The notes under the pieces were generated by a model that searched no databases, was not told the DNA's origin, and worked only from the letters and a program-made list of their open reading frames with translations. The position numbers were made by a program, and so were the translations under genes. Positions 37,569-39,759 of a stretch of DNA of 64,000 nt are shown here, in pieces. Each line of letters begins with the position of its first letter. Position 1 is the first letter of the stretch. This DNA is from Candidatus Bathyarchaeota archaeon (GTDB lineage Archaea > Thermoproteota > Bathyarchaeia > 40CM-2-53-6), in assembly GCA_963726255.1 (NCBI GenBank), contig CAVSBL010000002.1:1056001-1120000 (forward strand), in the 5' to 3' direction.

Positions 37569-37675
37569 TGGTGGGCCCGGAGGGATTCGAACCCTCGACC
37601 AGCAGGTTCCTCCGCTATGCATATGAGCTTCGACTTTCAGTGTCTGTCGCTCTAGCCTAGCTGAGCTACGGGCCC
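37569..37675 (-). tRNA. tRNA-Ile(CAT) (Ile2-type) with two introns: 30/31 (37629-37643) and 37/38 (37608-37621)
   Basis: Mature GGGCCCGTAGCTCAGCTAGGCTAGAGCGACAG|GCTCATA|ACCTGCTGGTCGAGGGTTCGAATCCCTCCGGGCCCACCA. The GGGCCC acceptor stem indicates Ile rather than Met. BHB central helix CGAC/GTCG at intron 1. Confidence 0.88.
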
Positions 37676-39254: not shown

Positions 39255-39542
39255 ATGTCGAAACCGGACGAAATCGGCTTTAATCCACTTGAGGAACTTG
39301 ATCGTAGCGAAGCACGCATCGTCGTTAGATTGGAGTTTAGGCGATTCCGTAAACCGGTAACAATCATTCAAGGACTGCCTAGCACACGATTGGCGGAAAT
39401 TGCTCGCGAGCTGAAACGGAGGTTCGGGGCAGGGGGAACCACTAAAGGTGGAGAGGTCCTACTCCAAGGAGATCATCGCGGGCACATCAAACAAGAACTC
39501 GTGGAATTGGGATTCCCGGCTGACCATATCGACATGATCTAA
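39255..39542 (+). CDS. SUI1/aIF1 family translation factor (YciH-like)
   Basis: RRFRKPVTIIQG, LKRRFGAGGT.K, LQGDHR. Confidence 0.92.
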   Translation: MSKPDEIGFNPLEELDRSEARIVVRLEFRRFRKPVTIIQGLPSTRLAEIARELKRRFGAGGTTKGGEVLLQGDHRGHIKQELVELGFPADHIDMI

Positions 39543-39560
39543 AGGAAAGGGATGAGAGCG

Positions 39561-39710
39561 TGGTGCTCCGGGCGGGATTTTCAGCGATTGAACCATCGCA
39601 TTCGAACCCGCGTCGCTGACTCTCTCCGCAAACTCGAGAGGCCAGCATACTCTCGGCGACATACGCCTTGACCGGGCTATACTCGGTAGCTGAACCGCTT
39701 CTACCGGAGC
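39561..39710 (-). tRNA. tRNA-Glu(CTC) with four introns: 10/11 (39682-39700), 20/21 (39652-39668), 37/38 (39622-39634), 59/60 (39578-39600)
   Basis: Removing 19+17+13+23 nt gives the canonical 78-nt GCTCCGGTAG|TATAGCCCGGTCA|AGTATGCTGGCCTCTCG|AGTCAGCGACGCGGGTTCGAA|TCCCGCCCGGAGCACCA. Each junction forms a BHB-type motif. Confidence 0.9.
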
Positions 39711-39751
39711 CCCAACTAACCCGGAGCAATTGGACTAACGCTGTCCCACGG

Positions 39752-39759
39752 TATTTTAA
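39752..39759 (-). promoter_or_regulatory. Putative TATA box of tRNA-Glu
   Basis: TTAAAATA on the minus strand, ~40-50 nt upstream of the mature 5' end. Confidence 0.45.

Follow-up and report, generated by a model that had tools for sequence, protein, structure and literature searches.

The archaeal transfer RNA (tRNA) genes that come closest to the one described here are those of the Thermoproteales (Pyrobaculum, Thermofilum, Caldivirga), of some Asgard archaea and of the species with split tRNAs. Many archaeal tRNA introns are marked by a motif called bulge-helix-bulge (BHB), in which a central helix of 4 base pairs (bp) stands between two bulges of 3 nucleotides (nt) that hold the splice sites, and in the canonical register the first two anticodon bases lie inside this helix (PMC4090602). 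Here we analyse a locus in the genome of Candidatus Bathyarchaeota archaeon (assembly GCA_963726255.1, contig CAVSBL010000002.1, positions 1,056,001 to 1,120,000). The window, meaning the whole stretch of 64,000 nt that was analysed, contains a tRNA-Glu(CUC) gene with four introns, preceded by a short leader sequence that repeats the reverse complement of the gene's own 3' acceptor strand. We read the locus as a functional Bathyarchaeia tRNA-Glu(CUC) gene with four BHB introns and a leader decoy that would aid the folding of the first intron, and put the probability of this reading at about 0.85; the decoy's part in that folding we rate slightly better than even.

The Thermoproteales share with this locus short introns in BHB and HBh' motifs at canonical and non-canonical sites (PMC4033280, PMC4090602, PMC8450103), among them introns in the D-loop near 20/21 and in the T-loop at 59/60, as well as a splicing endonuclease (EndA) of the (alpha-beta)2 type with a specificity loop and genes that standard finders overlook. 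They differ in the maximum of three introns per gene that these sources give for them, against four in the Bathyarchaeia gene; 10/11 is not among the Thermoproteales intron positions listed in the available portions of these sources, nor is a leader decoy described in them. The Asgard archaea (Atabeyarchaeia, Freyarchaeia) are similar in that their genes average over two intervening sequences and reach five in a single gene, in the many D-arm introns that annotators miss and in gain and loss of introns between close relatives (PMC11291895; bioRxiv 10.64898/2026.10.13.758758). They belong, however, to another phylum, and the main text of the preprint, as available, mentions neither a leader nor Bathyarchae, while its supplements may list 10/11. 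In the split tRNAs of Nanoarchaeum equitans and Caldivirga maquilingensis a sequence outside the tRNA and complementary to the precursor sets the fold for EndA (PMC4033280), which is what the Glu decoy may do as well. The split-tRNA leaders come from two transcripts, pair together and form the BHB themselves, whereas the Glu decoy would act in cis, pairing with its own 3' acceptor strand and lying outside the BHB. Our literature search, which left uncovered some older papers, databases and supplements where 10/11 introns or four-intron genes may be listed, found no description of Bathyarchaeia tRNA introns or of such a leader element.

Results and discussion

A tRNA-Glu(CUC) gene with four introns

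The features of the locus are collected in Table 1, where the introns are numbered I1 to I4. A preliminary description of the window had proposed that the 150-nt minus-strand locus becomes a tRNA-Glu of 78 nt when 19, 17, 13 and 23 nt are removed, and ARAGORN and an independent solver agree. The excised stretches, computed by script, are positions 11-29, 43-59, 77-89 (equivalently 76-88) and 111-133 of the pre-tRNA. ARAGORN calls the 78-nt product a tRNA-Glu(ctc) over its full length, with stems of 7, 4, 5 and 5 bp and the encoded CCA. The product has CUC in a 7-nt loop with U33, and U8, A14, G18G19 and the T-loop UUCGA are all present; its D-stem includes two G.U pairs that are kept in orthologues.

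Table 1 Features of the tRNA-Glu(CUC) locus in window coordinates
Feature	Position	Strand	Remarks
TATA-like box TTAAAATA	39752..39759	(-)	by eye; spacing conserved in genus
Leader decoy TGCTCCGGGT	39719..39728	(-)	reverse complement of nt 64-73 of the tRNA (discriminator A73 together with the 3' acceptor strand)
Leader GG at -2/-1	39711..39712	(-)	pairs in predicted fold, beside I1 motif
tRNA-Glu(CUC) gene of 150 nt with four introns between five exons	39561..39710	(-)	CCA encoded at 39563-39561
Exon 1, tRNA nt 1-10	39701..39710	(-)	columns 1-8 of alignment A1 invariant
Intron I1, 19 nt, site 10/11	39682..39700	(-)	relaxed HBh'-type motif
Exon 2, tRNA nt 11-20b	39669..39681	(-)	solver, alignment A1
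Intron I2, 17 nt, D-loop site 20b/21	39652..39668	(-)	solver, alignment A1
Exon 3, tRNA nt 21-37, with anticodon CTC	39635..39651	(-)	solver
Intron I3, 13 nt, canonical site 37/38	39622..39634	(-)	solver, alignment A1
Exon 4, tRNA nt 38-59	39601..39621	(-)	solver
Intron I4, 23 nt, T-loop site 59/60	39578..39600	(-)	full hBHBh' motif; solver, alignment A1
Exon 5, tRNA nt 60-76 including CCA	39561..39577	(-)	solver, alignment A1

The solver was given only the two ends of the gene together with the rules of the cloverleaf and of the BHB motif. Its top solution, with a score of 32.5, consists of exactly the same four introns, and places I1 at 10/11 as had been claimed; the second solution, with a score of 30.5, shifts I2 to 36-53 and yields a product of 77 nt. 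Random 150-nt windows of the genome gave any solution in only 3 of 3000 cases, with a best score of 22.0, and shuffles that kept the acceptor strands were solved in 152 of 3000 cases, with a best score of 25.0, compared to 32.5 for the real locus. When the letters of the introns were shuffled, the central helices of I1 to I4 arose by chance with p = 0.038, 0.046, 0.077 and 0.035, respectively, the product of which is about 5e-6.

All four introns have four of four central pairs and two 3-nt bulges each. The four exon bases 5' of the first bulge pair with the four intron bases 5' of the second, and the splice point in this layout, which agrees with the canonical register (PMC4090602), is predicted to follow the second base of each bulge. 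The junctions drawn in the preliminary description hold on re-reading the sequence, namely (with the cut as a slash and the bulges in brackets) CGGT[AG/A]AGC..GCT-ACCG[AG/T] for I1, CGGT[CA/A]GGC..GTC-GCCG[AG/A] for I2, CTCT/GGAG at 37/38 for I3, where the slash separates the two paired strands, and TTCG[AA/T]GCGAT..ATCGC-TGAA[AA/T] for I4. In tRNA numbering, the central helix of I1 joins C5-U8 to the intron bases ACCG, with an inner helix AGC/GCU, and that of I2 joins C17a-U20 to GCCG. The central helix of I3 pairs C32-U35 with GGAG and stacks on the anticodon stem, and in I4 the T-stem is followed by the pairing of U54-G57 with UGAA and then by a 5-bp inner helix. I3 and I4 are strict hBHBh' motifs with outer helices of 7 and 5 bp. 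In the source genome I1 and I4 have GGTTCA loops in common; these are not conserved in orthologues, and we rejected them as a meaningful element and treat them as a coincidence.

Conservation and covariation among relatives

The 150-nt query has homologues in all 41 genomes searched, which comprise the source genome (G000) and 40 relatives representing ten families within a single order. With a pattern laid across the I1 junction, 62 stretches of the genome collection were matched, 61 of them in metagenome-assembled genomes (MAGs) titled Bathyarchaeota or Bathyarchaeia and the remaining one on a contig titled Candidatus Acidoferrum (L096). The latter carries a three-intron Bathyarchaeia-type tRNA-Glu gene identical to that of another locus in our set (L016), and the contig is probably mis-binned.

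In an alignment of 25 Glu genes (A1) the exons are almost invariant, and the insertions are present or absent as clean blocks at the predicted borders. All four introns occur in 14 of the 25 genes, including one from another family and one tRNA-Glu(UUC), while I1 is missing in 5, I4 in 4, I2 in 2 and I3 in 1. Where an insertion is absent, the sequence runs straight across the predicted exon junction. Intron lengths vary among orthologues, from 16 to 20 nt for I1 and from 19 to 24 nt for I4.

When the BHB structure is laid over the alignment, 97.0% of 822 cells hold standard pairs, a share that falls to 37-44% on sliding the 3' partners by 1-3 columns. Fourteen pairs change on both sides, and none of 500 shuffles reached any of five measures. 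The central helices are 96.6-100% paired across the 25 genes. They vary little, as one of the two strands belongs to an exon; even so, position 57 of the exon (G or A) covaries with the opposite intron base. All five pairs of the I4 inner helix covary, as do two of the three in the I1 inner helix. Run on all 78 unique Glu genes, the solver found a solution for 65, of which 54 had a score of at least 26 and the anticodon CTC or TTC. Two further Bathyarchaeia Glu(UUC) genes (L046 and L061) have four introns, after mature nt 10, 37, 56 and 62; since these are other sites, intron sets differ between lineages.

Introns in other tRNA genes of the genome

About 46 tRNA genes are expected per genome. 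The Rfam tRNA model finds only 17 above its cut-off in the source genome, a sign of heavy interruption. We took a census with the solver, requiring a T-loop that matches T[TC]C[AG]A, the G53-C61 pair, an encoded CCA, U8 and no intron inside the acceptor strands, and admitting introns of at most 70 nt, or at most 100 nt in the T-loop. This census, which is partial and bound by these rules and drops solutions that score below 27.5 or are not recognised by ARAGORN, confidently resolved 23 tRNA genes. Introns interrupt 22 of them, and the solver counts 51 introns in total (50 if the Lys gene has four), or about 2.2 per gene.

The tRNA-Trp(CCA) gene (C2:266772-267000, minus strand, 229 nt) has five BHB introns, located at 10/11, in the anticodon stem, at 37/38, in the variable region and at 59/60; the 37/38 intron is 61 nt long, and ARAGORN accepts the spliced product of 77 nt. 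Four introns each appear to be present in tRNA-Pro(GGG) (C2:979121-979301, minus strand, 181 nt) and tRNA-Lys(UUU) (C2:1440515-1440704, minus strand, 190 nt), neither of which has a decoy. For the Lys gene the solver reads five introns; we rejected this reading by eye in favour of four, with a single 37/38 intron of 30 nt. The tRNA-Asn(GUU) gene (C2:1127748-1127883, plus strand; L105:149-284) has three introns, one of them at 8/9.

The four-intron gene is thus real without being the extreme of its own genome; the preliminary description had suspected an extreme case. Nor is the count of four unique. The description had put multi-intron tRNAs, as in the Thermoproteales, at no more than three introns, a figure that matches the older reviews (PMC4033280; "up to three" in PMC8450103). 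Among Asgard archaea, tRNA genes with several introns make up over half of the total in three genomes (PMC11291895, 2024), and families are reported to average 2.2 intervening sequences per gene with up to five in one gene, which exceeds that figure (bioRxiv 10.64898/2026.10.13.758758, October 2026).

A leader sequence that accompanies early introns

The decoy TGCTCCGGGT starts eighteen bases upstream of G1, outside the bounds that the preliminary description had given the locus. The TATA-like box TTAAAATA ends 23 nt before the decoy, and in genes without I1 a similar box, also recognised by eye, lies about 24-25 nt before G1; by this spacing, the transcript probably has the decoy right at its 5' end. 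The tRNA-Glu(UUC) gene of the source genome likewise has a TATA-like box about 24 nt before its G1.

The decoy and I1 occur together. Of the 60 unique Glu genes with I1, 52 have at least 7 contiguous Watson-Crick decoy bases, anchored at the discriminator and counted against nt 66-73; these 60 are a set that includes pattern-found genes and was thus chosen for having I1; the other 8 have 5-6 Watson-Crick bases followed by a G.U pair. Among the Glu genes without I1, all of which come from the search of relatives, the decoy is present in 1 of 18, and this exception (L017), from the same genus, has lost I1; the remaining 17 show none of it. A G at position -1 is found in 55 of the 60 genes with I1 compared with 3 of the 18 without it.

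The same association is found in two other tRNAs. In tRNA-Asn(GUU) the decoy reads CGCCGCCG and its first C pairs with G73; all 24 unique orthologues, drawn from across the order, carry both the decoy and the 8/9 intron (30 loci were screened and 6 dropped, being one duplicate, one without the gene and four in which the wrong gene had been picked). The tRNA-Trp(CCA) gene combines its 10/11 intron with a leader decoy of its own, TGGGGCCG. The leader base that pairs with the discriminator is T where the discriminator is A73 (Glu, Trp) and C where it is G73 (Asn). Across the census, an anchored decoy of at least 8 nt accompanies 3 of the 4 genes in which an intron lies at nt 12 or earlier, with tRNA-Leu(GAG) as the exception, and none of the 19 genes without such an early intron, where the longest match is 5 nt.

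Folding of the precursor by RNAfold depends on the leader. With the leader included, the decoy pairs with the 3' strand, C5-U8 pair with the intron bases ACCG, and A9 and G10 together with the A that follows form a 3-nt bulge; in addition, GG of the leader and G1 C2 U3 pair with A14-C17a of the D-loop, giving I1 an interrupted outer helix. With the leader left out, the acceptor stem forms and the central helix of I1 is absent. These folds, together with the distribution of the decoy, lend support to the earlier suggestion that I1 pairs with acceptor-stem bases and that its splicing may have to precede the folding of the tRNA.

Processing enzymes and a possible order of maturation

The genome encodes two open reading frames (ORFs) of the EndA family, of 188 and 187 aa (L103:1468-2034, minus strand, and L104:1204-1767, plus strand). 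The first is alpha-like; its best match is PDB entry 3p1z, chain B (E 8e-41), and next come 3ajv_B, 2cv8_A and 2zyz_B, which we take to be crenarchaeal EndAs, the closest ones being heterotetramer chains; the second is a weak match to models of the beta subunit. Where the "Crenarchaea-specific loop" of the Aeropyrum enzyme has K44 and R46, the 188-aa protein has K and K. This loop is described as conferring broad substrate specificity (PMC3241643). From these matches the splicing endonuclease is expected to be a two-subunit enzyme of the crenarchaeal type, and it is predicted to be able to cut non-canonical sites. One RtcB (RNA ligase) is also encoded, and the genome contains an archaeal RNase P RNA (173.6 bits).

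That the introns are actually spliced, and in which order, we infer from sequence. EndA would cut after the second base of each 3-nt bulge, and RtcB would join the exons into the 78-nt tRNA with its encoded CCA. I2, I3 and I4 are predicted to be local hairpins which EndA could meet in any order. I1, by comparison, is not expected to fold locally because its central helix uses the acceptor-stem bases 5-7 and U8, bases that would otherwise be claimed by the 7-bp G+C-rich acceptor stem. We propose that the transcript begins with the decoy UGCUCCGGG, which would pair with the 3' acceptor strand and A73 and, by capturing this strand, leave nt 1-8 free for the intron and the D-loop. EndA could then remove I1, the true 5' acceptor strand would displace the decoy, and RNase P would remove the leader last. 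As the decoy form is energetically favoured (see below), the exchange would need a driver beyond secondary structure, and it may be driven by tertiary folding, by proteins or by irreversible cleavage by RNase P. The wider proposition that Bathyarchaeia use a programmed 5'-leader "anti-acceptor" decoy to expose the nt 5-8 BHB for introns at 8/9 or 10/11 we regard as an even bet.

Points against this interpretation and alternative explanations

A number of observations weigh against the interpretation given above, and we take them up together with the alternatives they would favour. The first concern the leader. By nearest-neighbour energies the decoy form is the more stable one by 6-7 kcal/mol throughout, including when the tRNA is fully spliced, so that secondary structure alone fails to explain the takeover by the acceptor stem. 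The decoy and the acceptor stem are invariant within the Glu family, so covariation inside that family cannot probe their pairing. The tRNA-Leu(GAG) gene (C2:2253994-2254133, plus strand) has an 8/9 intron and no leader decoy, and the census on which the comparison between tRNAs draws is a partial one.

It is possible, though on balance unlikely, that the leader copy is a neutral scar of the intron's origin, left for example by a duplication of the 5' end, or that it is the true 5' acceptor strand, used with a different splice. The greater stability of the decoy helix at all stages would agree with this, as would the position of the decoy, which relative to the TATA-like box sits where G1 is found in the intron-less genes, and the mature sequence would be the same from either strand. 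Against this, the base that pairs with the discriminator lies outside any duplicated tRNA sequence and yet tracks the discriminator, and the element is conserved in different families of the order as well as in three tRNAs that are unrelated. As for the true-strand variant, no BHB appears drawable between the two copies. The gene that has the leader copy without I1 (L017) fits the scar and the decoy alike. We also considered a fifth intron lying upstream of G1, after the leader copy, whose excision would turn that copy into the actual 5' strand, and rejected it on reading the sequence. The copies have the same sequence and are not complements of each other, and the sole register that offers a 4-bp helix (the palindromic CCGG) would give G8 followed by U9 or C9 in place of U8 A9 and has no counterpart in Asn or Trp.

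A second set of points concerns the borders of the introns. I1 has no contiguous outer helix, and the motifs of both I1 and I2 are of the relaxed kind, their inner helices being 3-4 bp long and their outer ones 0-1 bp. The flanking helix of I2 is the weak point of the alignment, at 77.8% paired with 3 covarying pairs, and RNAfold prefers a competing GGCG/CGCC hairpin over the I2 motif. The central helix of I4 contains a G.A mismatch in three genomes (G004, G015 and G014), and the Glu genes that the solver left unsolved include three with such a mismatch (L003-L005). The gene might accordingly be real and wrongly parsed, with some insertion, most likely I2, having other borders or staying in place as an enlarged loop. 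The solver's runner-up with its shifted I2 points the same way as the weak flanks and the competing hairpin. We nevertheless consider this very improbable, as two genomes (G017 and G026) lack exactly the I2 columns, reading ...GGTCA/AGTAT..., and the central helix of I2 is 100% paired in all 23 of the genes that have this intron.

The remaining points concern the gene as a whole. ARAGORN reports 0 tRNAs in the window and, with its intron option, none at the locus either, and the Rfam tRNA model has no match at the locus even at E<=10, which bears out the expectation that standard annotation would miss the gene. A search for sequencing runs with the locus turned up no RNA run, and in two runs labelled metatranscriptomic (X23, X24) nothing matched, results that are uninformative on expression; contigs of DNA from two other runs (X5 and X7) carry the intron-containing gene, without joints. 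The source assembly (2.42 Mb, five contigs, 51% G+C) has an estimated contamination of 9.3%. A decaying pseudogene, with "introns" that are junk insertions never removed, would be consistent with the silence of the gene finders and of the two runs. It would not be expected to keep its exons near-invariant while its introns vary in length and sequence and preserve their helices by compensatory changes, nor to be kept across many species and several families, and it would stand in a genome where interruption is the rule among the resolved tRNA genes.

A check for a second Glu(CUC) gene had also been suggested. BLAST of the locus against its own genome found no other homologue longer than about 20 nt, although a very diverged copy is possible, and Glu-type 3' sequence followed by CCA occurs at only two loci of the genome, the Glu(CUC) gene and one Glu(UUC) gene (C2:1298092-1298224, minus strand, within L106), which carries just two introns, at 20b/21 and 37/38, and lacks a leader copy. 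The locus is thus apparently the only Glu(CUC) gene of the genome, the ground on which it could have been dismissed falls away, and we hold the pseudogene explanation to be even less probable than a wrong parse. That the locus is part of a small protein-coding gene has a negligible chance of being correct, as the overlapping ORFs (39487-39729, minus strand, 80 aa, and 39459-39662, minus strand, 67 aa) exist mechanically, the length differences among orthologues are not multiples of three for either I1 or I4, and the pattern of change is that of covariation in RNA helices.

Surroundings of the locus

The locus is flanked by protein ORFs. A T-rich tract, CCCTTTCCTTT, is located at 39541-39548 on the minus strand, 13-20 nt past the CCA, and is possibly an oligo-T terminator; this region differs among strains in the DNA runs. 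The window contains a second tRNA gene at 37569-37675 on the minus strand, the only one that Rfam finds there (48 bits). According to the solver it is a tRNA-Met(CAT) gene whose two introns follow mature nt 32 and nt 39; ARAGORN mislabels it as Gln(ctg) with one intron.

Conclusions

Nowhere in archaea is "cryptic" gene encoding clearer than in multi-intron tRNA genes, and with the genes described here the Bathyarchaeia, an abundant sediment lineage, join the Thermoproteales and some Asgard archaea among the organisms with the most interrupted tRNA sets. Because genes of this kind escape standard finders, the tRNA complements of these MAGs will look incomplete.

Of the features described, the leader decoy most deserves an experiment. 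It suggests how an intron could be tolerated at the meeting point of acceptor stem and D-stem, where the mature fold is incompatible with the splicing motif, and it offers a concrete, testable model of an enforced order of splicing and 5' processing. If the model is true, splicing of the I1 type would be a precondition for formation of the acceptor stem and for cleavage by RNase P, which would give the maturation of these tRNAs a built-in order and the introns of the tRNA core a previously undescribed route of survival.
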